Source: a virus (Duplodnaviria; Heunggongvirae; Uroviricota; Caudoviricetes). From it: a stretch of 41,350 bases of DNA. The translations under genes and the position numbers were made by a program. Under the pieces are notes generated by a model. It was not told where the DNA came from. It searched no databases and was given only the letters and a program-made list of their open reading frames with translations. How positions within the stretch are numbered: position 1 is the stretch's first letter; the number at the start of each line of letters is the position of its first letter. The stretch is from IMG/VR virus record IMGVR_UViG_3300045988_014834, positions 1 to 41,350 of that record; one strand, written 5' to 3'. This document shows positions 140 through 41,350 of this stretch, piece after piece.

Positions 140-556
140 CTACTTTTCCTGTAATGCTTTGCGCTCGGCGTTATGGAACGCGGCCACCTGTGTACCTAAT
201 GCCCTGAACTGGTCCAGCAATTTGTTAAATGCTTCTTTAGAGAAAGGCTCATCGAAGCTCCAGCCGTTTACGACTTCTGCCGCGAGTTGTCGGTTGAGGT
301 CTTCGGCCAGTTCGTTAACCGCCAGGTTATATTCAGTATAGTCGCCGGATTCTTTGGCGGCTTTTTCCAGCTCTTCGAAACGCGCCAACCCGCGGCGGTA
401 CGCGATAATGAAAGCACGTCCGGCTTTAACGGCGGCATCCGCATCGGGACTTACAACGTTAAGCCACTCCCCTGAGTCTTCGCCATTTGGCAGGAGAATT
501 GGCATCTTCTTGCCTACCAGTGCTTTCTCTTCGAAATAAAAATCAGAAAGTTTCAT
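140..556 (-). CDS. Tail assembly chaperone (lambda G-like), 138 aa
   Basis: Sits between major tail protein and tape measure genes on the late strand; its 3' end is overlapped in the -1 frame by an ORF that runs to the tape measure start. Confidence 0.5.
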   Translation of the reverse strand: MKLSDFYFEEKALVGKKMPILLPNGEDSGEWLNVVSPDADAAVKAGRAFIIAYRRGLARFEELEKAAKESGDYTEYNLAVNELAEDLNRQLAAEVVNGWSFDEPFSKEAFNKLLDQFRALGTQVAAFHNAERKALQEK

Positions 557-664: not shown

Positions 665-693
665 TTGCACACCCCAATATAATAGGGTACTAT
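665..693 (+). promoter_or_regulatory. Early promoter: -35 TTGCAC, 17-nt spacer, -10 TACTAT
   Basis: Sequence TTGCACACCCCAATATAATAGGGTACTATTCAC, nearly identical copies at 8523 and (reverse) 20188-20216. Confidence 0.6.
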
Positions 694-723
694 TCACTCA
701 CACCAACAATGAAGGAGTTTAAA

Positions 724-915
724 ATGTCCAGTTTACCAGTTTCCTTAATTCTGTTTGCACTACTAGCTTATTTTGCACCTTTCCTGGTTGCGTACTTCCG
801 TAATCATAAGGCGAAGTTAGCTATATTCATGGCTAACCTGTTTCTTGGTTGGGCTCTGCTGCCGTGGGTCTTTATTTTAATCTGGGCGTGCAACTCGAAT
901 GTTAACGAGAAGTAA
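724..915 (+). CDS. Small two-helix membrane protein, superinfection-immunity-like (Imm family pattern), 63 aa
   Basis: AAGGAG 6 nt upstream of the ATG at 724; two hydrophobic helices; motif YF.P....YFRNH...LAIF.ANLFLGW...PW..ILIWA matches my recollection of the Imm_superinfect family. Confidence 0.55.
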   Translation: MSSLPVSLILFALLAYFAPFLVAYFRNHKAKLAIFMANLFLGWALLPWVFILIWACNSNVNEK

Positions 916-953
916 GCTAGTATAGGACAAATCCTAAACACGAGGACGTAAGA

Positions 954-2084
954 ATGGCCCAGAAGAAAATAACCGACGAACAGTTACAGGAAGAATTGAA
1001 CGCCGGGATGAAGAATATCGACATTGCCCGTAAATACGGCATCTCCGACCGCGTTATTCGTATTCGCAAAGCGAAGCTGGCTAAGAAAGGCGTAGGCCAC
1101 GGGCGTGACGTTAGCCATCTCGTGCCGGACGGCTACAAGATTAAAGGAACGTCATCCCTGGTGGACGAGTTCGGCAACACTAAGCTGCAATGGGTTAAGA
1201 CCGACACCGATGCGGAACGTCAGGTCGAGTTAATGAAGGCCGTAATCGAGGGCATGAAGTCAGAGATTACCCCTGTTGCGCCTGTTAAAGCGACTCGAGC
1301 CAAACGCGACGACAAGCTACTCAATCTTTACACTGTATCTGATTTCCATCTCGGTATGCTGGCATGGGCCGACGAGAGCGGCGACGACTGGGATATGAAG
1401 ATTGCAGAAGACCTGTTCTCCCGCTGGTTCGATGCCGCGTTTCAGAAAGCACCGGATGCTGGAACAGGGGTTATTAACCTGCTGGGCGACCTTGCACACT
1501 TTGATAGTCTGGATGCCGTTACCCCGGCGAGTGGTCATGTTCTTGACGCCGACACCCGTTACCAGAAACTTGTCCGCTACATGATTCGCATGGTCCGCCG
1601 TGTTGTAGATATGGCGCTCGTTAAGCATAAAAATGTTCGCTTGCTTATTGTGCAAGGGAACCACGACGAGAGTGGCATGATTTGGTTAGCTGAGATGTTC
1701 AGTACGCTGTACGACAATGAGCCTCGTGTGTTCGTCGATACGTCGCCGGATGTTTACAAGATGGTGCAACACGGCAAAACGACGTTGTTCTTTACACACG
1801 GGCATAAATGCCGGTTTGAGGTGGTCGAACCCATTATGATAGCTAAGTTCAGAAAAGCATTTGGCGAAAGCGAGTACAGTTATGCACATGTTGGGCATCT
1901 CCACCACCAAAAGATCGTAGAAAGCAGGAATATGGTAGTGGAGCAGCATCGCACTCTCGCGGCGAAAGATGCATATGCTTCTCGCGGCGGGTGGATGTCG
2001 GGCCGTAGTGCAAACGTAATTACTTATAGCGCCGAATATGGCGAGGTCGCACGTTTAACTATTTCACCGGAGATGCTGGGATGA
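954..2084 (+). CDS. HTH domain fused to a calcineurin-like metallophosphoesterase, 376 aa
   Basis: N-terminal HTH-like segment (NIDIARKYGISDRVIRIRKAK); ordered phosphoesterase motifs DFHLG, GDLAHFD, GNHDE, HGH, GHLHH. Confidence 0.6.
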   Translation: MAQKKITDEQLQEELNAGMKNIDIARKYGISDRVIRIRKAKLAKKGVGHGRDVSHLVPDGYKIKGTSSLVDEFGNTKLQWVKTDTDAERQVELMKAVIEGMKSEITPVAPVKATRAKRDDKLLNLYTVSDFHLGMLAWADESGDDWDMKIAEDLFSRWFDAAFQKAPDAGTGVINLLGDLAHFDSLDAVTPASGHVLDADTRYQKLVRYMIRMVRRVVDMALVKHKNVRLLIVQGNHDESGMIWLAEMFSTLYDNEPRVFVDTSPDVYKMVQHGKTTLFFTHGHKCRFEVVEPIMIAKFRKAFGESEYSYAHVGHLHHQKIVESRNMVVEQHRTLAAKDAYASRGGWMSGRSANVITYSAEYGEVARLTISPEMLG

Positions 2085-2311
2085 CTTCAAAATATGACCA
2101 TACACTCACCAACACCGCAGGCGATTCCATTACATGTGATGTTTATGATGTGCTAAGGGCCTTCGTTATCCACGACCCCGCGCTACAACACGCATTAAAG
2201 AAACTGCTATGCATGGGCGGCAGGGGGCATAAGGACGCGGATACAGACCTTAACGAAGCAATTGAAAGTCTGGAGAAGTTACGGGAGTACCGAAGTAATA
2301 TTGATGAGTAA
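2081..2311 (+). CDS. Hypothetical protein, 76 aa, coupled to the phosphoesterase gene
   Basis: ATGA stop/start overlap with the upstream gene; followed by a hairpin terminator. Confidence 0.45.
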   Translation: MTSKYDHTLTNTAGDSITCDVYDVLRAFVIHDPALQHALKKLLCMGGRGHKDADTDLNEAIESLEKLREYRSNIDE

Positions 2312-2340
2312 GAAAAAGGCCCCGAAAGGGGCCTTAGTTT
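2312..2340. terminator. Bidirectional intrinsic terminator (GGCCCC-GAAA-GGGGCC)
   Basis: Perfect GC hairpin flanked by an A-run and a T-run, between convergent genes. Confidence 0.7.
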
Positions 2341-3512
2341 TATGCGTAGGTTATACGCTGAATAACAATAGACGACTGGTACTGATTGCCTGTGGACTGT
2401 CCTTCTATGCTTTGGGTGATTGACTCAGGCCCGCCAATCTCTGGTGTAACCGCCGTAAGTTCCGCGCGTTTCAGGCTGAAAGACATAGCCCCGTTTACCC
2501 CCGCCAGAATAGAGTTAATCTCTACCTGCTGCTCGTTGATAAACTTCTGAATCATCGCCATGTCGTACAGTTTACCGGAGATGGAGAAGGTGTTAGCTGC
2601 ACGGCTACGCTCCACAAACGCTACGTTAGTGTTACCAAGTTCGAACTGTGCGGACGCGCTGTTATCGTTGGTGATGGTCAGACTGTCACAACGCAACGGC
2701 GTAGAGCCGTCGAACACGGAAACGTCAACCGAGGAGAATGGCTCGTCACCAAACGTAACAGAGGAGAAATCAGAACCTGTCGGCGGCTCGGTGAGAATCT
2801 CCTGGCTGCGCCCGATGAACGGGAAACTGCCCGTTACCATCGCATTAACGGCCTGCTCGACAGTGAAACCGGAAACTTCCACACCTTTAGTAAGCGTGTA
2901 CGCGTCAGCCCCGCCGCACTGCCCTTTGTACCAGGTGAGAATAGAGAACGTCTTGCACTGGCTTCCTGTTTCCAGTTTATCCCCTGTCTTAGCGGCGGTA
3001 GTTACTGTCTCAGTGGTAAGAGTATGTTGGATACCCGCACCTGTAACAACAGTTGCACTTACCTCGGTTACGATAAACGGTTTTGCGTTGTCGCCCGTTA
3101 AGTCGGTAAACGCAATCAGGTCGCCCACTTCAATGCCGTCGGTAATAAAGCTGCCATCAGCACGGGTGAACGTCTTGCCCGCCGGTGCGACGGTAATCGA
3201 CAGCCCGGACAGAAAAACACCGGATTGCCACGTAGAGCCTAACGCGCCCGCTAACCAGTCATCCTGGCTTTTCGAGCTAAGCTCAATAGCATATTCACCA
3301 CTAACCTGTTTGTTACCGGTGCGGATGGACGTAGTTTCACGGCTGCCATCCAGTTCGTTGGAGGTCAGCGTGTCACGGGTAATGGCAGGAACGCCACCTG
3401 TGTTACGCAGCGGCGACCATACCGGGTTACTTGGTGTTACGCCCGGGGTAACTTCCGCCACATAGAATTGCGCGGTATTCGCGCCCTTAAAAGGAGTTGT
3501 AGCCATATTCAC
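2340..3512 (-). CDS. Major tail (tube) protein, 390 aa
   Basis: Position between neck genes and tail chaperone; Thr/Ser/Gly-rich beta-type composition; terminator immediately downstream. Confidence 0.5.
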   Translation of the reverse strand: MNMATTPFKGANTAQFYVAEVTPGVTPSNPVWSPLRNTGGVPAITRDTLTSNELDGSRETTSIRTGNKQVSGEYAIELSSKSQDDWLAGALGSTWQSGVFLSGLSITVAPAGKTFTRADGSFITDGIEVGDLIAFTDLTGDNAKPFIVTEVSATVVTGAGIQHTLTTETVTTAAKTGDKLETGSQCKTFSILTWYKGQCGGADAYTLTKGVEVSGFTVEQAVNAMVTGSFPFIGRSQEILTEPPTGSDFSSVTFGDEPFSSVDVSVFDGSTPLRCDSLTITNDNSASAQFELGNTNVAFVERSRAANTFSISGKLYDMAMIQKFINEQQVEINSILAGVNGAMSFSLKRAELTAVTPEIGGPESITQSIEGQSTGNQYQSSIVIQRITYA

Positions 3513-8306: not shown

Positions 8307-8460
8307 TTTTACACAAGCAATAGAGTATGGCCCTTCCGAACGCGTCAGCGTAACTACACTCAGGACTTACGTCCCGCTCCGTTACCTGCCCGCGCCGCGG
8401 TCGCTTGTTCACACTTCACAAGCTCAGGAGGAGCTTAGCACACTTTTAGTGAAAAGTCAA
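8307..8460. repeat. Conserved ~150-bp noncoding element, copy A (second copy 20382-20525)
   Basis: About 75 percent identity to copy B with compensatory changes in a hairpin (GGAC-TTAC-GTCC here, GTGCC-TAAT-GGCAC in B). Confidence 0.6.
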
Positions 8461-8522
8461 CTATTCGAATAGTTTATTCCAACATTTACAATTTAGTGGA
8501 ATAACTGGAATACATAAATAGT

Positions 8523-8551
8523 TTGCACACCCCGATATAATAGGGTACTAT
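8523..8551 (+). promoter_or_regulatory. Early promoter copy (TTGCAC N17 TACTAT) driving the methyltransferase
   Basis: TTGCACACCCCGATATAATAGGGTACTATTCAG. Confidence 0.6.
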
Positions 8552-8579
8552 TCAGTTAACTTGAACAGCAGGAGTTAAA

Positions 8580-9308
8580 ATGTTTACTTTGAAACGTGGG
8601 GATTGTCTGGAGTTGATGCATGACGTACCAGATAAGAGTGTAGACCTTATTTTATGCGATTTACCTTATGGTACGACGCAAAACAAATGGGATACGGTAA
8701 TACCTTTCGATGCCCTATGGGGCCATTACATGCGTATTTCTCGCGGTGCTATTGTGCTAACAGCAGCGCAACCTTTCACTAGCGCGTTGATTATGAGTAA
8801 TGCTAAATTGTTCAAATACTCGTGGGTTTGGGATAAGGCAAATAGCACTGGATTCCTTAACGCTAAAAAGCAACCTTTACGCCGAACAGAGGACGTGGTT
8901 GTATTTTATGGCTCACAGCCAACCTATAACCCTCAAATGGAAGTTAGAGGTAAGCCCCGTAAGAAAGGTGGGTATATTAAAAAAGACGGCTCTGACAACT
9001 ATGGGTCTTTTAAAAGTGTAGAATCTGTTAGTAATGATTACTACCCCACCAATTTGATAGAAATATCTAATGCTAATAGGTCGGAAAAGTGCCACCCCAC
9101 CCAAAAACCAGTAGCGTTGATGGAATACCTGATTAAGACGTATACAAACGAAGGGGATACAGTTCTTGATAACTGTATGGGCAGCGGGACGACCGGAGTT
9201 GCGTGTGCGAACACAAACCGGAAGTTTATAGGCATGGAGTTAGACCGTGATTACTTCCGTATAGCCAGAAGACGCATATCTGAAGCATATAAAACTAAGG
9301 CCCCTTAA
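8580..9308 (+). CDS. Orphan DNA methyltransferase (N6-adenine/N4-cytosine beta-class), 242 aa
   Basis: Catalytic-motif region DLILCDLPYG followed later by the AdoMet motif HPTQKP...VLDNCMGSGTT; no restriction enzyme partner nearby. Confidence 0.85.
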   Translation: MFTLKRGDCLELMHDVPDKSVDLILCDLPYGTTQNKWDTVIPFDALWGHYMRISRGAIVLTAAQPFTSALIMSNAKLFKYSWVWDKANSTGFLNAKKQPLRRTEDVVVFYGSQPTYNPQMEVRGKPRKKGGYIKKDGSDNYGSFKSVESVSNDYYPTNLIEISNANRSEKCHPTQKPVALMEYLIKTYTNEGDTVLDNCMGSGTTGVACANTNRKFIGMELDRDYFRIARRRISEAYKTKAP

Positions 9309-9320
9309 GGGGCCTTTTAT
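9295..9320. terminator. Bidirectional hairpin terminator (AAGGCCCC-TTAA-GGGGCCTT)
   Basis: Perfect hairpin between convergent genes. Confidence 0.65.
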
Positions 9321-9781: not shown

Positions 9782-10857
9782 TATTCCTCTTTCAGATAAT
9801 CAGCAACACGTTTATCGAGTTCCGCCATCTGCTTAAGCGTGAGCGGATTCCAAAAACCATCTACAGATATTACGCGAAACTCTTCCGGTGATATACCGCT
9901 GTTGCGGAAAATCTTACCGCGCACCGGGCCGAGCGCCTGGTCCTGGAACCACGCTGGTTGTTGTTTCAGGAACTCGTAGTAAGTGGTGTCTGCGCTTACC
10001 TGAGTACCGCCGTCCGCACCCTTAGCCGCTCGTTTCGCACCTTTATCGAGGAAGTCGAACTCGGAACTGATTACCGGAGCTGTGCACGATCGACAGTTAG
10101 GATGGGCGGGGGGCATCGGCCCCTTACCAATTTCCCACGTCATTCCGTCTCTGGCTCTGCAAATCGTACTGGTACGACTGTCCAGCGTCGACACCCACTC
10201 GTATTTCTCGATGATGTCGTCGTTCTGGCGATACGTCTCGTTGCGGGCTTCGTTGGATACGTGGGACAGCGCGGTGCGGATTACGGTAGCGGCATTACGT
10301 TCAGAGATGTCCGCCAGCCCACCAGCGCCAACAACATTCTTAACAATCTGCCGTGTCGTTTGACCTTGTACAAAGCCCATCTTAACGCCGGTTACCAGGC
10401 GCGATACTTCTGTTTCACCCCAGCCATCCATCAGCTTAGTGAAATCGACGGGCTTGTCGCTTAACGATAAGGGTTGAAACTCGGCGGCGGCCCACACTTG
10501 TTCGGCGGTTGGCGTAACAAATTCCGCATTTACGTTGGCGGTAAGTGTCTTTACATTCCACCCGGCCTCATATGCCGCCAGTTCCTTAAGGTCTTCTGTC
10601 AGCTTTGTTTGCCAGTCGCCGGTAAGTCCGGTTAGTGCTTCTTCCAGGTCGCGTAACAGTTTATTCAGCCGTGCGGTGCTGCGACCGTCGTCGCCAAATA
10701 ACAGCACCTGCCGTTTGATTTCATCTCGCATTTCCTGAATGAGCGGTGCGAGGTCTTTCACTTCGCCTGATGCGGTGCGTTGTAGCCATATTTGGTGGCT
10801 GATTAGTGATGTAAGTAAGCTCATAGATAAACCCTGTGGCGCTAAAGTTAATAGCAT
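9781..10857 (-). CDS. Head morphogenesis protein (SPP1 gp7 / Mu F-like), 358 aa
   Basis: Follows the portal gene; conserved C-terminal Cys-containing region (ICRARDG...HPNCRSC). Confidence 0.65.
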   Translation of the reverse strand: MLLTLAPQGLSMSLLTSLISHQIWLQRTASGEVKDLAPLIQEMRDEIKRQVLLFGDDGRSTARLNKLLRDLEEALTGLTGDWQTKLTEDLKELAAYEAGWNVKTLTANVNAEFVTPTAEQVWAAAEFQPLSLSDKPVDFTKLMDGWGETEVSRLVTGVKMGFVQGQTTRQIVKNVVGAGGLADISERNAATVIRTALSHVSNEARNETYRQNDDIIEKYEWVSTLDSRTSTICRARDGMTWEIGKGPMPPAHPNCRSCTAPVISSEFDFLDKGAKRAAKGADGGTQVSADTTYYEFLKQQPAWFQDQALGPVRGKIFRNSGISPEEFRVISVDGFWNPLTLKQMAELDKRVADYLKEE

Positions 10858-10893
10858 ACTATAAGAAAGCCCCTTTCGGGGCTATATGTGAAC

Positions 10894-14256: not shown

Positions 14257-14290
14257 ATTATATAAGGGGATTGGGTGGGATGTACAGAAA
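14257..14290 (-). promoter_or_regulatory. Candidate late promoter: perfect -10 TATAAT, poor -35
   Basis: Minus-strand TATAAT at 14262-14257, just after the early-operon terminator and upstream of the terminase genes. Confidence 0.35.
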
Positions 14291-14312
14291 AGCCCTCAGT
14301 AGAGGGCTTGTG
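14288..14312 (-). terminator. Intrinsic terminator ending the small-gene operon
   Basis: Hairpin AGCCCTC-AGTA-GAGGGCT followed by a T-rich run on the minus strand. Confidence 0.55.
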
Positions 14313-15710: not shown

Positions 15711-15739
15711 AATATAGTAGGGTCGAGGGTAATAGTCAA
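15711..15739 (-). promoter_or_regulatory. Near-consensus sigma70 promoter: TTGACT, 17 nt, TATATT
   Basis: Minus strand reads TTGACTattaccctcgaccctacTATATT. Confidence 0.6.
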
Positions 15740-15760
15740 CTAGTCATTGCAGAAAATAGA

Positions 15761-17497: not shown

Positions 17498-17697
17498 TTC
17501 TCCTGTTTACCAAGTCGCTTAGGCGAGCAGATAGCGCGTACCTCTGAATCGTTGGGCTTGTCGCCCTGAAACAGGAAGTGCGCGTTCTCTGCGGCGCGTG
17601 CCGCTGACTGGCACGCCTCCATCGAATAAAACGTTTCTGATGCCGCCAGGTGCATATGCCCTGCGGACAGTACCCAGATAAACAAGATGCTGGTCAT
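17494..17697 (-). CDS. Small predicted secreted protein, 67 aa
   Basis: N-terminal signal-peptide-like stretch MTSILFIWVLSAGHMHLAAS; two Cys in the mature part. Confidence 0.35.
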   Translation of the reverse strand: MTSILFIWVLSAGHMHLAASETFYSMEACQSAARAAENAHFLFQGDKPNDSEVRAICSPKRLGKQEK

Positions 17698-18149
17698 TTC
17701 TTTAACCCGCACTTCTTGCACATCATCGAAGCACTTGTATCGTAAAAGTACCAATCGTGCTCGCATTCCTGCGCGTCTTCCTTACGGCAACCATATTGCT
17801 CAGGCACGCACCCGCCTTTGCGGATAAGTTTGTACGCCTCTGCGTCACCAGTAGCCCGAACCAGCGCCAAATGCAATTCCTTAAGCTCCGCCCGCGCATC
17901 GCGTAACTGGTTCTTGAGTGACTGCACCTCATGCGCCAGGTCTTCGCGCTGTTGCTTGTACGGGTTGTGCTCCAGACCTATGTAAGCATCGATTATTGCG
18001 TTTTCCTCGTCGGTATAGTTACCGCGACCCGCGATACTACGGTCGATACTCCACCGTTCAATCTCACCCATTACATCTACGACAGATAGCTGCTGCCGTA
18101 GCTGGTCAATCAGGTACTCGAATACTTCGTTTTTGTTACTCATCATCAA
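17694..18149 (-). CDS. Hypothetical protein with C-terminal Cys-rich zinc-ribbon-like motif, 151 aa
   Basis: C-terminal Cys cluster ending CKKCG. Confidence 0.4.
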   Translation of the reverse strand: MMMSNKNEVFEYLIDQLRQQLSVVDVMGEIERWSIDRSIAGRGNYTDEENAIIDAYIGLEHNPYKQQREDLAHEVQSLKNQLRDARAELKELHLALVRATGDAEAYKLIRKGGCVPEQYGCRKEDAQECEHDWYFYDTSASMMCKKCGLKK

Positions 18150-18276
18150 ACCCCATTGTTATCACTTTCGTGTCGCCGTTACACACCGAAGTGCTGCCTA
18201 GTATCTCGTAAGCATCAACCAGTTCGCCTAAAGTCCAGGACCTATACCCTTCCATCCAAGTTGCTGCGGGAATCAT
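18136..18276 (-). CDS. Small protein, 46 aa
   Basis: Promoter plus GAGGAG upstream; overlaps the next gene start. Confidence 0.3.
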   Translation of the reverse strand: MIPAATWMEGYRSWTLGELVDAYEILGSTSVCNGDTKVITMGFDDE

Positions 18277-18307
18277 ATTCTGTCTCTCCTCTCGTTCGTG
18301 TAAATGA

Positions 18308-18336
18308 ATAGTAGCCTATTCTATCTTAGCGTGCAA
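18308..18336 (-). promoter_or_regulatory. Promoter TTGCAC, 17 nt, TACTAT (early-type, divergent spacer)
   Basis: Minus strand TTGCACgctaagatagaataggcTACTATTCA. Confidence 0.5.
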
Positions 18337-18575: not shown

Positions 18576-18595
18576 GAAAAATGATACGCTGCTGT
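18576..18595 (-). terminator. Hairpin ACGCTGCT-GTGT-AGCAGCGT followed by a T-rich run on the minus strand
   Basis: Read from sequence. Confidence 0.45.
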
Positions 18596-18638
18596 GTAGC
18601 AGCGTAAGTCACTCAGTAAAATCTTAAACTATTGAACA

Positions 18639-19934: not shown

Positions 19935-20153
19935 TTATTTAAAGTAGATAGCGAATTTCTTGTAACCCGCAGGCTCGTTACGAAGCCCTTTACCGTTAGC
20001 GAAACGTTGTACGTTGATAAAATCATTTTCATCCATTCCGTCGGTGTCGAACGTACAGAAGTTGCGTTTGTTCCCAATAATTACGCGCTCTGAGGTATCG
20101 ATGCCGTAAACTTCTTTGATTGCGGAAACTACGCTTGCAGTCGCTTTGTTCAT
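19935..20153 (-). CDS. First early-left gene, hypothetical, 72 aa
   Basis: AGGAAT upstream; about 30 nt downstream of the early promoter. Confidence 0.4.
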   Translation of the reverse strand: MNKATASVVSAIKEVYGIDTSERVIIGNKRNFCTFDTDGMDENDFINVQRFANGKGLRNEPAGYKKFAIYFK

Positions 20154-20187
20154 TTCTGAATTCCTTATGTCTCGTTCCGATAAGTGA

Positions 20188-20216
20188 ATAGTATACTATT
20201 ATGTTGGGGTGTGCAA
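20188..20216 (-). promoter_or_regulatory. Early promoter copy (TTGCAC N17 TACTAT) for the leftward early operon
   Basis: Minus strand TTGCACACCCCAACATAATAGTATACTATTCAC. Confidence 0.6.
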
Positions 20217-20381: not shown

Positions 20382-20525
20382 CAATAGACTTTGGCCCTTC
20401 CGAAAGCGCCAGCGGAACTACACTCAAGTGCCTAATGGCACGCGTTGCGTTCCCTGCCGCTCCGCGGTCGCTTGCGATATCTCACAAGCTCAGTGAAGCT
20501 TAGCATATTTTTAAGTAAAAGTCAA
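20382..20525. repeat. Conserved ~150-bp noncoding element, copy B
   Basis: Aligns with 8307-8460 including covarying hairpins. Confidence 0.6.
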
Positions 20526-20632: not shown

Positions 20633-20815
20633 ATGCAGCATTACATGACACAGAATGAAGTAGCTGAACGTATCGGGGTGACCCGTCAGACAATTAATAA
20701 CTGGTTGCGCAGTGGTAAATTCCCGGATTGTTGTATTAAGGTTATGGGCCGCCGTTTACCAGGAACATTTGATCGTAATAAAGTTGAAGCGTGGATTAAG
20801 GAGAACGTGAAATGA
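20633..20815 (+). CDS. Small HTH DNA-binding protein (AlpA/Xis-like), 60 aa
   Basis: GGAG then ATG; HTH-like segment MTQNEVAERIGVTRQTINNWLRSGKFP. Confidence 0.5.
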   Translation: MQHYMTQNEVAERIGVTRQTINNWLRSGKFPDCCIKVMGRRLPGTFDRNKVEAWIKENVK

Positions 20816-23622: not shown

Positions 23623-23650
23623 AAAAAAAGAAAGGGGCGTTAAGCCCCTT
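23622..23650 (-). terminator. Hairpin terminator (GGGGC-GTTAA-GCCCC) with T9 on the minus strand
   Basis: Read from sequence; stop codon of the HTH gene lies in the loop. Confidence 0.55.
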
Positions 23651-23855
23651 CACCAAACGCCAGCCACTTGGCGTCTACTTGCAGCACTTCCGCCAGTTTG
23701 AACAGCGTCGCCGGGCGGACGTCCTGAGTTACTCCAAGCGCCAGCTGGTTAATTGCACCCTGGGAAACGCCGGCCAGAACAGCCAGACGGCGCTGGGAGA
23801 TGCCGAGTTCTTTACGGCGTTGTTCTACACGAATGCCTAGTTCAGATGGTTGCAT
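23640..23855 (-). CDS. Cro/CI-type (XRE family) HTH regulator, 71 aa, divergent within the replication arm
   Basis: ELGISQRRLAVLAGVSQGAINQLALG is a classic XRE-type HTH; AAGGAG upstream. Confidence 0.6.
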   Translation of the reverse strand: MQPSELGIRVEQRRKELGISQRRLAVLAGVSQGAINQLALGVTQDVRPATLFKLAEVLQVDAKWLAFGEGA

Positions 23856-23919
23856 GTCAATTACTCCTTAGTCAGTTGATATGTGAATAGTACCATATTA
23901 ATTATTTTAGAAAAGCCCA

Positions 23920-23948
23920 TTGACAAGTGAATAGCTCGCTATTATAGT
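23920..23948 (+). promoter_or_regulatory. Middle promoter TTGACA, 17 nt, TATAGT with embedded palindrome AATAG-N4-CTATT (23930-23943)
   Basis: ttgacaagtgAATAGctcgCTATTatagtt. Confidence 0.55.
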
Positions 23949-23979
23949 TAGCACATACCAAACGAGAGGAGCGAAACAA

Positions 23980-24450
23980 ATGTTAGACCAATTTCTGAAA
24001 TTACTTGAGCGTTTCGTAGTTGCCCACGAACTGATTGCTGCGAACAGTGTGAAACAAGTAGTCGTTGCTGAAACCGCAACAATCGAGACCACTGTTGCGA
24101 AAGAAGCAACAAAAGAAATCCCAGTCGAAGGTGAAGACCTCGTCGACACTAAACCGGCAGAAGAAGAGAAGCCAAAACGCAAGCCGCGTAAAGCTAAAGT
24201 AGAGGAGCCGACGCCAGAGCCGGAAGAAGAGAAGGAAGAAGTCGATTACCAGTCTCTGCGCGACCAGATTCAGGCTATCGACGATGCGATTAATGAAGGT
24301 CCGAGCGATGCCGCGTGCGATGATTCCGATGAACTGCTGGAAGAGTTCACCGGTAAGAAAATGAAGATTGCCGCGATTAAAGACGAAGACCTGGCCGAGT
24401 ACCTGGAACGCCTGACGGCAATCAAGAACAAGTATTTCGAAGAAGAATAA
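23980..24450 (+). CDS. Highly acidic protein, 156 aa
   Basis: Long Glu/Asp-rich stretches, short basic patch KPKRKPRKAK, C-terminus YFEEE. Confidence 0.45.
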   Translation: MLDQFLKLLERFVVAHELIAANSVKQVVVAETATIETTVAKEATKEIPVEGEDLVDTKPAEEEKPKRKPRKAKVEEPTPEPEEEKEEVDYQSLRDQIQAIDDAINEGPSDAACDDSDELLEEFTGKKMKIAAIKDEDLAEYLERLTAIKNKYFEEE

Positions 24451-26522: not shown

Positions 26523-26552
26523 TTGACAACCTGAATAGTTAGCTATTATAGT
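26523..26552 (+). promoter_or_regulatory. Middle promoter TTGACA ... TATAGT with palindrome AATAG-N4-CTATT (26534-26547)
   Basis: ttgacaacctgAATAGttagCTATTatagtt. Confidence 0.5.
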
Positions 26553-27234: not shown

Positions 27235-27295
27235 TATCTGAATCAATCTAACTAAGGCCCTTCATTGGGCCTTTTTACTAAGGGTCGAAAATAAT

Positions 27296-29922: not shown

Positions 29923-30203
29923 CTAAAGAGGGCCGCGTACAGAAATACGCAAAGGAGCGATTCGAGGCCCTCGGGGGCCTCGTTCGAAAGCTGTCTTATG
30001 AGGGACGCTCCGGCGCCCCCGACCTCCTGGTAATTCTCCCCGGCGGCATTGTCTGGTTTGTCGAGGTTAAGAAAGACGAAAATACGAAGCCAGACCCGCA
30101 CCAGTTACGTGAACATGAGAGATTTCGAAAACGTGGTGCAAATGTTTTTGTCGTCGGTTCGTTTAAACAGGTTGACGACCTAATAGCGAACTATTATAGT
30201 TAG
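29919..30203 (+). CDS. VRR-NUC domain nuclease, 94 aa
   Basis: Core PDLLVILPGGIVWFVEVKK (D...E.K PD-(D/E)XK pattern). Confidence 0.55.
   Translation: MTKEGRVQKYAKERFEALGGLVRKLSYEGRSGAPDLLVILPGGIVWFVEVKKDENTKPDPHQLREHERFRKRGANVFVVGSFKQVDDLIANYYS
30172..30200 (+). promoter_or_regulatory. Middle promoter TTGACG, 17 nt, TATAGT with palindrome AATAG-N4-CTATT (30182-30195)
   Basis: ttgacgacctAATAGcgaaCTATTatagtt, inside the 3' end of the VRR-NUC gene. Confidence 0.5.
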
Positions 30204-30233
30204 TCCTACACCAACAATATAAGGAATTGAGAA

Positions 30234-30425
30234 ATGAAACACGAATATGACCGCAAGCCAGCCCGTGACATCGTACCAGGTGACATGATTTTCAACGTTA
30301 AGACACGCCAGCCTGTTGCCGTTGATACGGTGTTCGTCGAGTCGAACGGTAAACTGGTTATCGAGGACGTAACCGGTAACGTTACGGCGTTTGGGCGTAA
30401 AGAGTTAGTTCTGGTGTTGAAATGA
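30234..30425 (+). CDS. Hypothetical protein, 63 aa
   Basis: AAGGAAT upstream of the ATG. Confidence 0.4.
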   Translation: MKHEYDRKPARDIVPGDMIFNVKTRQPVAVDTVFVESNGKLVIEDVTGNVTAFGRKELVLVLK

Positions 30426-30919
30426 ACAAATTAACTAGAAGGCCTGATATTGAGGAGGCGAAACGTCTTCTTAACTATGACCCCGAAACAGGCGTATTTA
30501 CACGGAAAGTAAGCATAAAAGGTAGGAATGCGGGGGAGGTAGCCGGGGGTCCAAACGACAAAGAATACATAGTTATCACCGTATCTGGTGTAAGAATAAA
30601 AGCCCACCATCTGGCATGGGCTTTCGTCTACGGAGAATATCATAATGGTGAGCTTGACCATAAAGACCGTAACAGGGCTAATAACGCCATAAATAATATA
30701 AGGCCAGCAACCAGGAGCCAGCAGATTCAGAACCGAGACTGCGCATCACATAACACTAGCGGTGCGATAGGGGTTTACCAAATACCCTCTGGCAGGTGGC
30801 GCGCCAGAATAGGCGTCAATAACAAATACATCCACCTTGGCTATTTTGACACTATAGAAGAAGCGTCGCGCGTATACCAAAGAGCCGCGGAAATATACTT
30901 CGGGGAGTTCAGGGCATGA
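30422..30919 (+). CDS. HNH homing endonuclease with C-terminal AP2-like DNA-binding domain, 165 aa
   Basis: HNH motif HH...ELDHKDRNRANN..NN; C-terminal GVYQ..SGRWRARI...LGYF.T.EEA..Y. Confidence 0.65.
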   Translation: MNKLTRRPDIEEAKRLLNYDPETGVFTRKVSIKGRNAGEVAGGPNDKEYIVITVSGVRIKAHHLAWAFVYGEYHNGELDHKDRNRANNAINNIRPATRSQQIQNRDCASHNTSGAIGVYQIPSGRWRARIGVNNKYIHLGYFDTIEEASRVYQRAAEIYFGEFRA

Positions 30920-32340
30920 GTAAGTTTAGGCGCAGGGAATATCAGAAAATAATGACGTCGTTTATGTTACGGCACCCACGTTGCAATATCTGGTGCGGCA
31001 TGGGAGGGGGTAAAACCTCCTCTACTATGTGGGTGCTCAACAGATTGTTTCGCAACGGGCAGCTTACTGAAGAGGACCGAGTGTTAATTCTGGCTCCTTT
31101 ACGTGTTGCGTCAGGTACGTGGCCAGCGGAACAGGCACGTTGGAATTTCCCATGCCTGAGTGTCGTAGATGCCACCGGTTCAGAGAAGCGCCGCATCGCG
31201 GCGCTGGAGTCCGACGCTAACGTGGTATGCACCAACTATGAAGTTATCGAGTGGCTTATTGACTATTACGGCAAAGACGACTGGCCTTTCACCGTTATCG
31301 TTGCCGATGAAAGCACGAAGCTAAAATCATTCCGCAGCCGTTCTGGCGGTAGCAAGCGGGCAAAGGCGCTTAGTAAAGTGGCGTTCGGAAAGGTTAAGCG
31401 TTTCATTAACCTGACGGGCACACCGTCGCCAAACGGCCTCAAGGACTTGTGGGGGCAGAACTGGTTTATCGACGCTGGCGAGCGACTCGGTTCTTCATAC
31501 ACGGCATTCACCGACCGATGGTTTAACTCGGTGCAGAAAGGTAAGTCGGCTATGGCGCGGGGGTATCACGCACGACCTGGTGCAGATAATGAAATTCACC
31601 AGAAGATGAAGGACATTAGTCTCACGATTGACGCCGCCGAGTGGTTCGGATGCGAAGCGCCGATTATTGTACCGGTTGAAATTGACCTGCCTAAGAAAGC
31701 ACGTCAGGCGTATATCGATATGGAGGAGAAGCTATTCGCGGAACTGGAGAGCGGAGAAGTCGAAGCGGCTAACGCCGCGGCGAAGACCTCAAAGTGTTTG
31801 CAGATTGCGTCTGGTGCCGTGTATGTGTCAGGACCAGACGGAGAAGCAACCAAAGACTGGGAGAAAGTGCACGACACGAAACTGGATGCGCTGGAGTCGA
31901 TTGTTGAGGAGTTACAGGGCGCGCCGTTACTTGTGGCCTATCAGTTCAAGCACGAACTGGAGCGCATCCTTAAGCGGTTCCCGCAGGCACAGGCGTTTGC
32001 CAAAGGTGTGAAGGGTAATAAGCAGATGGAAGCGTGGAACCGCGGTGAAATCGAAATATTATGCGTACACCCTGCGTCAGCCGGGCATGGTTTGAATTTG
32101 CAGGACGGCGGACATCATCTGGCGTTTATTTCGCAAGGGTGGAACCTTGAGCACTATTTGCAGGTTGTCGAGCGCATAGGCCCAGTTCGCCAGAAACAGG
32201 CGGGCCACGAACGCCCTGTGTTCCTTTACCACATTGTTGCTAAAGACACGCTGGACGAGGTTGTTGCCGCGCGTACCGACGAGAAGAAATCGGTACAGGA
32301 AGAATTGCTTAATTACATGAAGAGACGAGGTAAGAAATGA
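30916..32340 (+). CDS. SNF2/DEAD-like superfamily 2 helicase, 474 aa
   Basis: Walker A GMGGGKT, DEST box, LTGTPSPN motif. Confidence 0.7.
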   Translation: MSKFRRREYQKIMTSFMLRHPRCNIWCGMGGGKTSSTMWVLNRLFRNGQLTEEDRVLILAPLRVASGTWPAEQARWNFPCLSVVDATGSEKRRIAALESDANVVCTNYEVIEWLIDYYGKDDWPFTVIVADESTKLKSFRSRSGGSKRAKALSKVAFGKVKRFINLTGTPSPNGLKDLWGQNWFIDAGERLGSSYTAFTDRWFNSVQKGKSAMARGYHARPGADNEIHQKMKDISLTIDAAEWFGCEAPIIVPVEIDLPKKARQAYIDMEEKLFAELESGEVEAANAAAKTSKCLQIASGAVYVSGPDGEATKDWEKVHDTKLDALESIVEELQGAPLLVAYQFKHELERILKRFPQAQAFAKGVKGNKQMEAWNRGEIEILCVHPASAGHGLNLQDGGHHLAFISQGWNLEHYLQVVERIGPVRQKQAGHERPVFLYHIVAKDTLDEVVAARTDEKKSVQEELLNYMKRRGKK

Positions 32341-32546
32341 ATAATGAGTTTGATATTGACGCTTGCAACGAATTGATAAAAGCCGCTCTTAATGCCCGCG
32401 AGCAACTGCTTGCCATGCAGTTAAAGCGAGAAATAAAACGTATCAAGGAACTGGAAGAAGAGGTTCTACGACTACGGCAGCAGCGTGACGCGGCTAACGC
32501 TCTTATTCAGGAACAGAACCGAATTATTGCAGGAGATACAGAATGA
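32337..32546 (+). CDS. Small coiled-coil protein, 69 aa
   Basis: Coupled to the helicase; heptad-like charged pattern. Confidence 0.35.
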   Translation: MNNEFDIDACNELIKAALNAREQLLAMQLKREIKRIKELEEEVLRLRQQRDAANALIQEQNRIIAGDTE

Positions 32547-32826: not shown

Positions 32827-32855
32827 AAAAGGCCCCTAAAGGGGCCTTAATTTTA
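32826..32855. terminator. Bidirectional terminator (GGCCCC-TAAA-GGGGCC) between replication arm and tailspike
   Basis: Perfect hairpin with flanking A and T runs. Confidence 0.7.
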
Positions 32856-41077: not shown

Positions 41078-41350
41078 GATTTCTACCTTCAAAGATTGCT
41101 TCTAAGCCCATGATAATGTCTATCTCGAACAGGCTAAGCTGTTTTTGCGTAACATCGAGATAGGCTTTCAGGTCTTGCCACGTAACGGATTCTCTTGCGA
41201 ACAATACTACAGCGTCCTCGCGCGCGTGTCGCGTAAACTTAATGTCGCAATACGTCTCAAAGGTGGATATAAAAAGGGGTGGGCATTCTGGCCCACCCCG
41301 TCGCGCTGCACGTTTTTTCTTATCGATTACACCCATCGCGATAAGCGCCT
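41070..41350 (-). CDS. T-like -1 frame extension of the tail chaperone; in the circular genome it continues as 56-170
   Basis: Open minus-strand frame from the stop at 171-173 through the junction to 41070, ending in overlap with the tape measure ATG; no convincing own start codon. Confidence 0.45.
   Translation of the reverse strand, partial: ALIAMGVIDKKKRAARRGGPECPPLFISTFETYCDIKFTRHAREDAVVLFARESVTWQDLKAYLDVTQKQLSLFEIDIIMGLEAIFEGRNHG
41276..41299 (-). terminator. Terminator-like hairpin GGGGTGGGC-ATTCTG-GCCCACCCC with T5 on the minus strand
   Basis: Read from sequence; lies inside the chaperone extension frame. Confidence 0.4.
41296..41350. repeat. Second copy of the 55-bp terminal repeat
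   Basis: Identical to 1-55. Confidence 0.9.

Follow-up and report, generated by a model that had tools for sequence, protein, structure and literature searches.

A 14-bp dyad at promoter-like sites of a Kagunavirus genome, a candidate operator of a 434 Cro-like protein

The Cro protein of phage 434 binds 14-bp dyad operators whose outer bases are conserved and whose centre is variable. Phi29 p4 and the controller (C) proteins of restriction-modification systems are likewise small proteins that act on inverted repeats overlapping promoters, and they time expression. A further concept that bears on this work is the moron, which is credited to Juhala and Hendrix. Morons are autonomous promoter-gene-terminator units in the late operons of lambdoid phages, and the term has been applied to Serratia phage eta (PMC3918226). 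Here we describe a stretch of phage DNA of 41,350 nt (IMG/VR record IMGVR_UViG_3300045988_014834; the whole stretch is referred to as the window) in which a family of near-identical promoter-like repeats carries a 14-bp dyad, AATAG-N4-CTATT. The window is the genome of an E. coli phage of the genus Kagunavirus (Guernseyvirinae), with 88-91% identity over 60-80% of a 25-kb query to Escherichia phages of that genus, such as P AB-2017 and HSE2. The dyad marks most of the promoter-like sites of the phage and is not confined to a class of accessory-gene promoters. From sequences, their statistics and conservation, gene content and protein homology we infer promoter activity, protein binding, repression and timing, with a 434 Cro-like protein encoded in the window as the favoured candidate for the regulator.

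The repeat is already in print. The promoters that PHIRE predicted in two phage papers share its 20-nt motif as well as its genomic positions, as in TAATAGGGTACTATTCA and TGAATAGTACCCTATTATAT. Seven sites are given for phage Golestan, TAATAGGGTACTATTCATTA and others, as conserved phage promoters (PMC7203180, Table S4), and seven for phage fBC-Eco01 with the consensus tgAATAGTa-ccTATTat-T, called promoters of a 'phage-encoded RNA polymerase' and labelled 'Phage RNAP promoter' PP1-PP7 (PMC9825357, Table S2). In the searched passages, both papers regard it as a promoter with a direction, and one of them ascribes it to a phage RNA polymerase. Neither there nor in the searched supplements did we find it stated that the motif is a dyad, that -35/-10 hexamers flank it, that it occurs in two registers or that it is linked to a helix-turn-helix (HTH) gene. 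In GenBank OM272052 the site is annotated 'promoter'.

An initial annotation of the window had proposed a family of near-identical early promoters of about 30 bp that drive accessory genes. As a repeat family this proved real. The degenerate 32-mer TTGCACACCCCRAYATAATAGKRTACTATTCA had exactly three matches in the window, at 665-696(+), 8523-8554(+) and 20185-20216(-), and none in 100 dinucleotide-preserving shuffles even when up to 3 mismatches were allowed. The coordinates in the annotation take in its first 29 nt (-35 to -10 inclusive), while the consensus as written there spans 32 nt. The spacer-divergent relative that it placed at 18308-18336(-) was also confirmed, in that TTGCAC-N17-TACTAT occurred there and, with zero mismatches, only at the four sites P1 to P4 within the window. 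We refer to these as class A promoters:

665-696, plus strand: P1, with its -35 (TTGCAC) at 665-670, its -10 (TACTAT) at 688-693 and the dyad at 681-694; it heads the Imm/phosphoesterase cassette
8523-8554, plus strand: P2, with the dyad at 8539-8552 and the -10 at 8546-8551; it heads the methylase cassette
20185-20216, minus strand: P3, the copy named in the finding, with its -35 at 20216-20211 and its -10 at 20193-20188; it heads the leftward block of small open reading frames (ORFs), the first of which starts at the ATG at 20153
18305-18336, minus strand: P4, with the divergent spacer GCTAAGATAG, the dyad at 18307-18320 and the -10 at 18313-18308; it heads the ORFs from 18276 onward towards the holin and endolysin genes

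Identity to P1, counted by hand, was 31/32 for P2, 29/32 for P3 and 25/32 (78%) for P4. All four copies are intergenic and have the same sigma-70-type anatomy, with a TTG-containing -35, a 17-nt spacer and a -10 that retains A2 and T6. An ATG preceded by a ribosome-binding site (Shine-Dalgarno) lies 28-34 nt from the -10, and P1, P2 and P4 are each located downstream of a predicted terminator. This anatomy, together with the position before a ribosome-binding site and ATG in every copy, supports the reading of the repeats as promoters. The hexamers match the sigma-70 consensus at 7/12 positions (TTG; T1, A2, A5 and T6 are retained). A generic promoter scan with a 9/12 cut-off omits class A, and its total of promoter-like matches was no higher than in shuffles, so that the scan is uninformative here. 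A fifth class A-like member, with the -10 region TACTATTCA and a poor -35, was located at ~23887-23915(-), upstream of an HTH gene. A search of phage records found a 39-nt class A sequence 365 times, in 156 records, and those listed have 1-4 copies each. Nearly all of these records are named Escherichia, Kagunavirus or Salmonella phages, and none lies outside enterobacterial hosts. Phage K1B4 has five class A copies.

All four class A copies contain the dyad AATAG-N4-CTATT, and the TACTAT -10 occupies dyad positions 8-13. In P3 it is a perfect 14-bp palindrome, AATAGTATACTATT, at 20187-20200. With its flanks the dyad extends to 18 bp, TGAATAG-N4-CTATTCA. The dyad also lies in three promoters of a second kind, class B; the right half of the genome has no other sigma-70 promoters close to consensus. 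The flanked element, read as TGAATAG-N4-CTATTAT, has opposite orientations in class B and class A. The sites outside class A, including those with one mismatch to the dyad, are as follows:

23920-23948, plus strand: class B promoter, TTGACA-N17-TATAGT, with the dyad at 23930-23943 in the spacer; divergent from the Cro-like gene, it heads 23980-24450 and the replication genes
26523-26552, plus strand: class B promoter, TTGACA-N18-TATAGT, whose dyad lies at 26534-26547, ahead of the genes for a Gp2.5-like single-stranded DNA-binding protein (SSB) and DNA polymerase
30172-30200, plus strand: class B promoter, TTGACG-N17-TATAGT, whose dyad lies at 30182-30195, ahead of 30234-32546 (HNH endonuclease, SNF2 helicase)
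23886-23899, minus strand: one-mismatch dyad AATATGGTACTATT, overlapping the TACTAT -10 (23892-23887) of the Cro-like gene promoter, whose -35 is poor
15711-15744, minus strand: lysis-proximal promoter, TTGACT-N17-TATATT, downstream of the lysis-gene terminator; the one-mismatch dyad ACTAGTTGACTATT (15744-15731) overlaps its -35
10850-10863, minus strand: one-mismatch dyad TATAGTATGCTATT, just past the terminator that separates the portal from the head-morphogenesis genes
8452-8465: one-mismatch dyad AAAAGTCAACTATT, within a degenerate class A look-alike, TAGCAC-N17-AACTAT (8436-8465, plus strand)

The window thus holds 7 exact dyads compared to ~0.05 expected per genome, and 11 with at most one mismatch (7 exact + 4) compared to 1.1 expected. 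Every exact dyad (7/7) overlaps or abuts a -10. When palindromes of the form 5+N+5 were enumerated without bias, the dyad was the top non-terminator palindrome of the window, ahead of the terminator stems. It also ranked first in four other Kagunavirus genomes, with 6-8 exact copies in each. Jerseyvirus SE2 has 3 exact dyads, along with AATCG/CGATT variants at the same promoter positions. The lysis-proximal arrangement is kept in Kagunavirus and appears in SE2 as AATAGTTGACTAGT, and the site at 10850-10863 is also among those picked by PHIRE in phage Golestan (PMC7203180). The initial annotation had taken the promoter class to be specific to accessory genes. This was not the case, as the dyad is also in three replication-gene promoters and, with one mismatch, in two others. 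Its claim that conservation extends well beyond the hexamers stood, but the conservation is not spread over the whole 30 bp: the extra element is the 14-bp dyad, and the upstream part of the spacer varies.

We examined the conservation of these sites in a pool of ~35 Guernseyvirinae genomes or fragments, in which promoters were defined by their hexamers alone. AATAG occupied spacer positions 11-15 in 47/49 unique class A sites, and the upstream spacer half, ACCCCA, was poorly conserved among orthologues. At orthologous sites the half-sites were fixed and the central 4 bp varied (CTCG/TTCG/TTAG/CTAG; CGAA/CGAG/CAGA/CGGG/CGGA; GGTA/GATA/TATA/GTTA/GCGT), which fits the usual pattern of a dimer-bound operator. 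Relative to the inferred transcription start, the dyad is centred at ~-12.5 in class A and at ~-18.5 in class B. Class B orthologues have spacers of 17 or 18 nt; the additional base of the longer ones falls between dyad and -35, so that the dyad stays fixed to the -10. The two registers relative to the -10, with the dyad fixed in class B, therefore indicate a separate module and not a polymerase recognition sequence. The use of both orientations is unlike a directional polymerase element and like a symmetric protein-binding site. The orthologue set had been widened by an IMG/VR scan with TGAATAGNNNNCTATTAT, which served only this end. It gave at least 119 loci, among which BLAST recognised only ~34 Guernseyvirinae fragments. 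The remaining loci, mostly single matches, are probably chance hits to a 14-base pattern.

Two small HTH proteins encoded in the window are candidates for binding the dyad:

23640-23855, minus strand: HTH_3 (Xre/Cro) protein, 71 aa, Pfam HTH_3 at 1.2e-12, with a terminator at 23651-23631
20633-20815, plus strand: HTH_17 (excisionase/MerR-like) protein, 60 aa, encoded first in the rightward operon; the competing candidate binder

The best match of the HTH_3 protein among PDB sequences was 434 Cro (also 71 aa; E 4.9e-7). A single-sequence AlphaFold (AF2) model of it (pLDDT 84, five helices) gave 2cro as the best Foldseek match (TM 0.72-0.78, 40% identity). Its nearest homologue outside the subfamily is annotated cro and lies beside a cI gene in a lambdoid Klebsiella phage. 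The candidate is therefore like 434 Cro in being a 71-aa single-domain HTH_3 protein, with 434 Cro as its best sequence and fold match among solved structures, and the dyad is like the 434 operators in its 14-bp length, its conserved outer bases and variable centre, and its position over the core promoter. The gene also lies in a divergent dyad-bearing region: it is back-to-back with the class B promoter at 23920, and the two dyads between them have centres 44 bp apart, with the weaker one on the gene's own promoter. Unlike 434, no cI partner, integrase or lysogeny module was found here. No cI or integrase gene is annotated in the relatives that were compared, and the phages of this group are said to be strictly virulent. 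There is no HTH in the divergent gene (23980-24450), a member of phrog_3127, whose function is unassigned, and the two dyads are not in tandem, which is not the layout of a bistable immunity region. Also unlike 434, the putative operators are dispersed over 9-11 promoter and other sites, not arranged as tandem OR1-3, the half-site is AATAG and not ACAA, and binding is predicted only. C.AhdI and C.BclI were among the fold matches of the HTH_3 model, and a methylase is among the genes presumed to be controlled here. The likeness to p4 and C proteins is functional only, as sequence and fold are closer to 434 Cro. Unlike C-protein systems, the window has no restriction gene, and there is no sign of activation.

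We propose that class A and class B promoters are read by the host RNA polymerase and that the dyad would be the operator of a phage-encoded dimeric HTH protein, with the 71-aa Cro-like HTH_3 protein as the favoured candidate. Once bound across -19 to -6 in class A, or -25 to -12 in class B, such a protein would keep RNA polymerase off the core promoter, which makes repression the economical reading. As the protein level rises, all operator-bearing promoters would be damped together, namely those of the early small-ORF block, the replication genes and both antisense cassettes. One promoter-like site would be spared, the dyad-free promoter of the terminase and structural genes (14286-14257, minus strand). 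This site, TGTACA-N18-TATAAT, follows a terminator and lies directly upstream of the terminase small subunit gene. The region 14257-14310(-) is the sole dyad-free one among the promoter-like sites examined at operon starts, and is a candidate late promoter. We give this combination of host-type promoters, an embedded dyad operator and a phage HTH dimer, most likely the HTH_3 protein, as repressor about an even chance of being correct.

Several observations weigh against this reading. With only 7 of the 12 consensus positions matched in class A, both the strength of the promoters and their use by unaided host polymerase are assumed. The HTH_3 protein of Jerseyvirus is only 51% identical to that of the window and differs at 4/7 recognition-helix positions, and yet the half-site core AATAG is the same in both genera, with the flanking base changing from G (Kagunavirus) to T or A (Jerseyvirus). 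Kagunavirus and Jerseyvirus both have the dyad, and their HTH_17 proteins are 82-86% identical; HTH_17 is absent from Cornellvirus SP-031 and St162, both of which are without AATAG-N4-CTATT. The distribution of HTH_17 thus tracks the dyad, and so the phyletic evidence does not cleanly pick HTH_3. In favour of HTH_3, SP-031 and St162 retain this protein at 39-41% identity and have another AT-rich dyad, ATTAS-N4-STAAT, at equivalent promoters, including both of those beside the HTH_3 gene. The enrichment of this Cornellvirus-type dyad is, however, modest, with 2 exact sites compared to ~0.1 expected and 9-10 at one mismatch compared to ~3. A first definition of it, ATTAG-N4-CTAAT, was discarded because it was not enriched (3-4 sites compared to ~1 expected). 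Literature searches found no transcription start site, footprint, binding, operator or regulator study for Guernseyvirinae.

Timing provides a further point of this kind. The only transcriptome of a relative is a time-course RNA-seq of K1B4, which assigned 4 genes to the early, 42 to the middle and 11 to the late class (PMC12645636). An early shut-off repressor predicts an early peak of Imm and methylase expression, and both are in the late class of K1B4, which includes Imm, two methylases and DNA polymerase (PMC12645636). The experiment was poorly synchronised, as phage reads made up at most 8.9% of the total and sampling ran from 5 to 120 min against a latent period of 30 min (PMC12645636). 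The K1B4 data do not support immediate-early expression of the cassettes, and yet they are weak evidence either way.

The same architecture would result if the binder were instead the HTH_17 protein (20633-20815, plus strand), acting as an early master regulator of all dyad-bearing promoters. Its phyletic distribution, described above, speaks for this. So do its weak MerR-like matches (Pfam MerR_1, E 0.005; phrog_2474, E 6e-6) and the location of the class B dyads inside the -35/-10 spacer, as for MerR operators. An 'HTH domain' gene is also among the four early genes of K1B4 (PMC12645636) and is taken as the HTH_17 homologue by gene order, which is how K1B4 genes 004 and 008 were assigned to HTH_3 and HTH_17. 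The comparison within Kagunavirus points the other way. Phage LM02P1 has 8 exact, unchanged dyads and an HTH_3 protein that is 98.6% identical, while its HTH_17 is only 69% identical with many changes in the HTH region (TRQTINNW replaced by SPMTLNRW). Cornellvirus and St162, moreover, have their dyads at equivalent promoters without any HTH_17. The protein, at 60 aa, has no MerR-type dimerisation helix, and the spacers, at 17-18 nt, are shorter than in MerR-activated promoters (19-20 nt). Direct repeats are the usual targets of excisionase-type HTH_17 proteins, which also counts against a role at the dyad. The region upstream of the HTH_17 gene itself has no exact dyad. Two specific modes of activation were rejected: a MerR-type spacer operator, given these spacers, the 60-aa length and a MerR_1 score of 17.4 bits against a cut-off of 21.6, and activation of the lambda CII type (TTGC-N6-TTGC), on sequence and spacing. 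Overall, we consider HTH_17 control unlikely and, from the sequence comparisons, clearly though not overwhelmingly favour HTH_3 over HTH_17 as the dyad binder.

It is also conceivable, though rather improbable in our view, that the sites are ordinary host-type promoters and need no additional factor. The near-identity of the copies would then stem from recent duplication or gene conversion of a module travelling with insertion hot-spots, and the dyad would be a by-product of symmetry around an A/T-rich -10, or a bidirectional -10. P1-P3 share the spacer bases ACCCCAAYAT, which are dispensable in orthologues, and this points to common descent. The perfect palindrome of P3 would put TACTAT on both strands, and class A, when reverse-complemented, looks similar to the -10 region of class B (CTATTATAT/CTATTATAG). 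Common descent accounts for ACCCCAAYAT in P1-P3. It does not account for the dyad in promoters that are otherwise unrelated (class B, lysis-proximal and HTH promoters), where the half-sites are retained, and in two registers. The left half-site has no polymerase-recognition role in class A, yet it was present in nearly all of the hexamer-defined sites, and the excess of exact dyads over expectation is likewise hard to reconcile with a by-product. P1 and P2 have no acceptable -35 on the opposite strand.

We regard it as highly improbable that the phage exploits a DNA-binding protein of its host (E. coli/Salmonella) and that the dyad serves as the site for it. Kagunavirus and Jerseyvirus have related hosts and a common dyad although their Cro-like proteins have diverged, which would fit, but Cornellvirus and St162 infect Salmonella and yet lack AATAG-N4-CTATT, and we know of no enterobacterial regulator with such a dyad consensus. 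Finally, despite the promoter labels in the fBC-Eco01 and Golestan papers, recognition by a phage-encoded RNA polymerase or sigma-like factor can be dismissed almost entirely: none (0/10) of the largest ORFs scanned (390-851 aa) matched an RNA polymerase, nine having other Pfam families and the 851-aa ORF, without a Pfam match, corresponding to an annotated tail protein; the mid-size and small ORFs that were tested gave no sigma-like match, and the annotations of relatives include neither kind of protein; the motif always lies between a TTG-containing -35 and a TAnnnT -10 at sigma-70 spacing; and a palindrome used in both orientations (class A versus class B) is incompatible with a directional polymerase promoter.

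The two plus-strand class A copies, P1 and P2, each head a short cassette:

724-915, plus strand: Imm_superinfect gene, 63 aa, Pfam E 4.8e-13, with its ATG at 724 and AAGGAG upstream
954-2084, plus strand: calcineurin-like phosphoesterase gene in cassette 1, behind P1
2081-2311, plus strand: ATPase/PNK-like remnant, 76 aa, matching only the C-terminal third of ATPase/PNK-like PHROG families
724-2335, plus strand: cassette 1, ending in a bidirectional terminator at 2316-2335
8580-9316, plus strand: cassette 2, with an N6_N4 DNA methylase gene at 8580-9308 (Pfam E 6.4e-30) and a bidirectional terminator at 9297-9316

Both cassettes lie on the plus strand amid minus-strand tail, head and lysis genes, and cassette 1 is antisense between the tail assembly chaperone gene (140-556, minus strand) and the tail tube gene (2340-3512, minus strand). 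P AB-2017 has intact HAD-hydrolase and ATPase genes at the counterpart of 2081-2311. The ORF in the window is therefore a deletion remnant of a phosphoesterase and 3'-phosphatase/kinase (RNA-repair-like) cassette. The Pfam identities of the genes, the position of the cassettes and the bidirectional terminators agree with the annotated claim that the plus-strand copies would drive the methyltransferase and Imm/phosphoesterase genes antisense to late operons.

A predicted promoter and a terminator flank the cargo in both cases (P1 with 2316-2335; P2 with 9297-9316), and each cassette sits between conserved genes at a place where relatives differ in having a cassette or in its cargo. P AB-2017 is without both the methylase and P2, and Bas72 and K1B4 have different small genes behind the same promoter. 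The GC content of the methylase cassette, 0.40-0.42, deviates from that of its flanks (~0.50-0.53), and the Imm cassette, at 0.45-0.55, shows no clear deviation. By their predicted promoters, cargo and terminators, both cassettes are morons in the classic sense, plugged into what would be a shared circuit. They are like morons in having their own promoter and terminator, in lying between conserved structural genes, in their presence/absence and cargo polymorphism and, for the methylase, in a deviant GC content. They are unlike lambdoid morons in that the phage is virulent and no prophage expression is expected, in that they are antisense to the surrounding operon, and in that their promoters are not idiosyncratic and are copies of the phage's own regulated promoter module.

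The terminators of the two cassettes belong to a near-identical bidirectional family, AAGGCCCC-N4-GGGGCCTT, found at 2316-2335, 9297-9316 and 32829-32848, with a variant at 27255-27272. This family borders the antisense cassettes and marks where the replication and tail operons converge. The first 55 nt of the window are identical to the last 55 nt (1-55 and 41296-41350), and the window is therefore a complete, circularly assembled genome of 41,295 bp. Its genes are laid out as follows:

~20.6-32.5 kb, rightward (plus) block: HTH_17 protein, helicase-primase, PD-(D/E)XK nuclease, Gp2.5-like SSB, DNA polymerase A, HNH endonuclease and SNF2 helicase
from 20.2 kb, leftward (minus) block, first part: small ORFs without known function, holins and endolysin, and further small ORFs
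remainder of the leftward (minus) block: terminase, portal, head and tail genes, crossing the junction down to 32.85 kb

The first gene after P4 is split into overlapping minus-strand ORFs of 46 aa (18136-18276) and 151 aa (17694-18149). P AB-2017 has a single 182-aa gene, P_44, at this position, and the split in the window is a frameshift or a sequencing error. ARAGORN found no transfer RNA in the window. Rfam gave no match for the whole window at the gathering threshold, nor any at E<=1 for two large non-coding regions.

The two largest non-coding regions contain an element of ~125 nt that is present twice with ~75-89% identity, at 8318-8445(+) and 20382-20510(+). One copy lies upstream of P2, and the other lies between P3 and the HTH_17 gene. 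The first copy bears the class A look-alike (8436-8465) at its 3' end, ~60 nt before P2, and the second copy has an even weaker look-alike, upstream of the HTH_17 gene. Among 13 unique Guernseyvirinae variants, the central hairpin changes in sequence while its complementarity is kept (pairs GGAC/GTCC, GTGCC/GGCAC, CGGAC/GTCCG, GTGC/GCAC, ACGTC/GACGT and CACG/CGTG). The enclosing stem has compensatory changes too, including a G.U pair that is possible only on the plus strand. The element may act as RNA, as a cis-regulatory leader or small RNA not described before, or as a DNA structure, for instance an origin.

Two further observations concern the surroundings of the promoters. Downstream of promoters of either class we noted shared 5'-leader motifs, ACACCAACAAT and ACGAACGAGAGGAG / AAACGAGA, at 700-720, 18285-18300, 20165-20180, 23950-23970 and 30205-30225, and these may be common translation-initiation or RNA-processing signals. 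In some Kagunaviruses an extra exact dyad, cAATAG-N4-CTATTg, lies right after the terminator TACGCTGCTGTGTAGCAGCGTA without obvious promoter hexamers (loci L006 18327, L035 9946, L095 3445, L072 5508 and L127 36765). The window has this terminator (18585-18606), and the extra dyad after it is absent.

Taken together, the initial interpretation is partly supported: promoters, antisense cassettes and an extra element are all borne out at the level of sequence, the element appears to be a shared dyad operator, and immediate-early control of the cassettes is unproven. Reading the published repeat as a host-type promoter with a putative dyad operator is modestly interesting. It would correct the attribution in the literature to a phage RNA polymerase, for which no gene was found among the ORFs scanned, and it yields a cheap and concrete hypothesis of one small protein and one 14-bp site. 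A broader proposal, that a strictly virulent siphophage subfamily keeps a cI-less 434-Cro-like protein as a genome-wide governor of transcription, with the dyad in at least 7-9 promoter-like sites, those of horizontally exchanged anti-defence and exclusion cassettes among them, is more tentative, and we place it a little below an even chance. If it is true, a gene dropped behind the portable promoter module would join the temporal programme automatically. Such a portable, co-regulated module would explain how accessory genes (superinfection exclusion, methylase, phosphoesterase/PNK) are expressed inside antisense late operons. Phages of the genera Kagunavirus and Jerseyvirus are widely isolated with therapy and biocontrol in view, and their use as synthetic-biology chassis has been proposed (PMC11990801). 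For these phages the reading would be useful in engineering and annotation, while conceptually it is no surprise.

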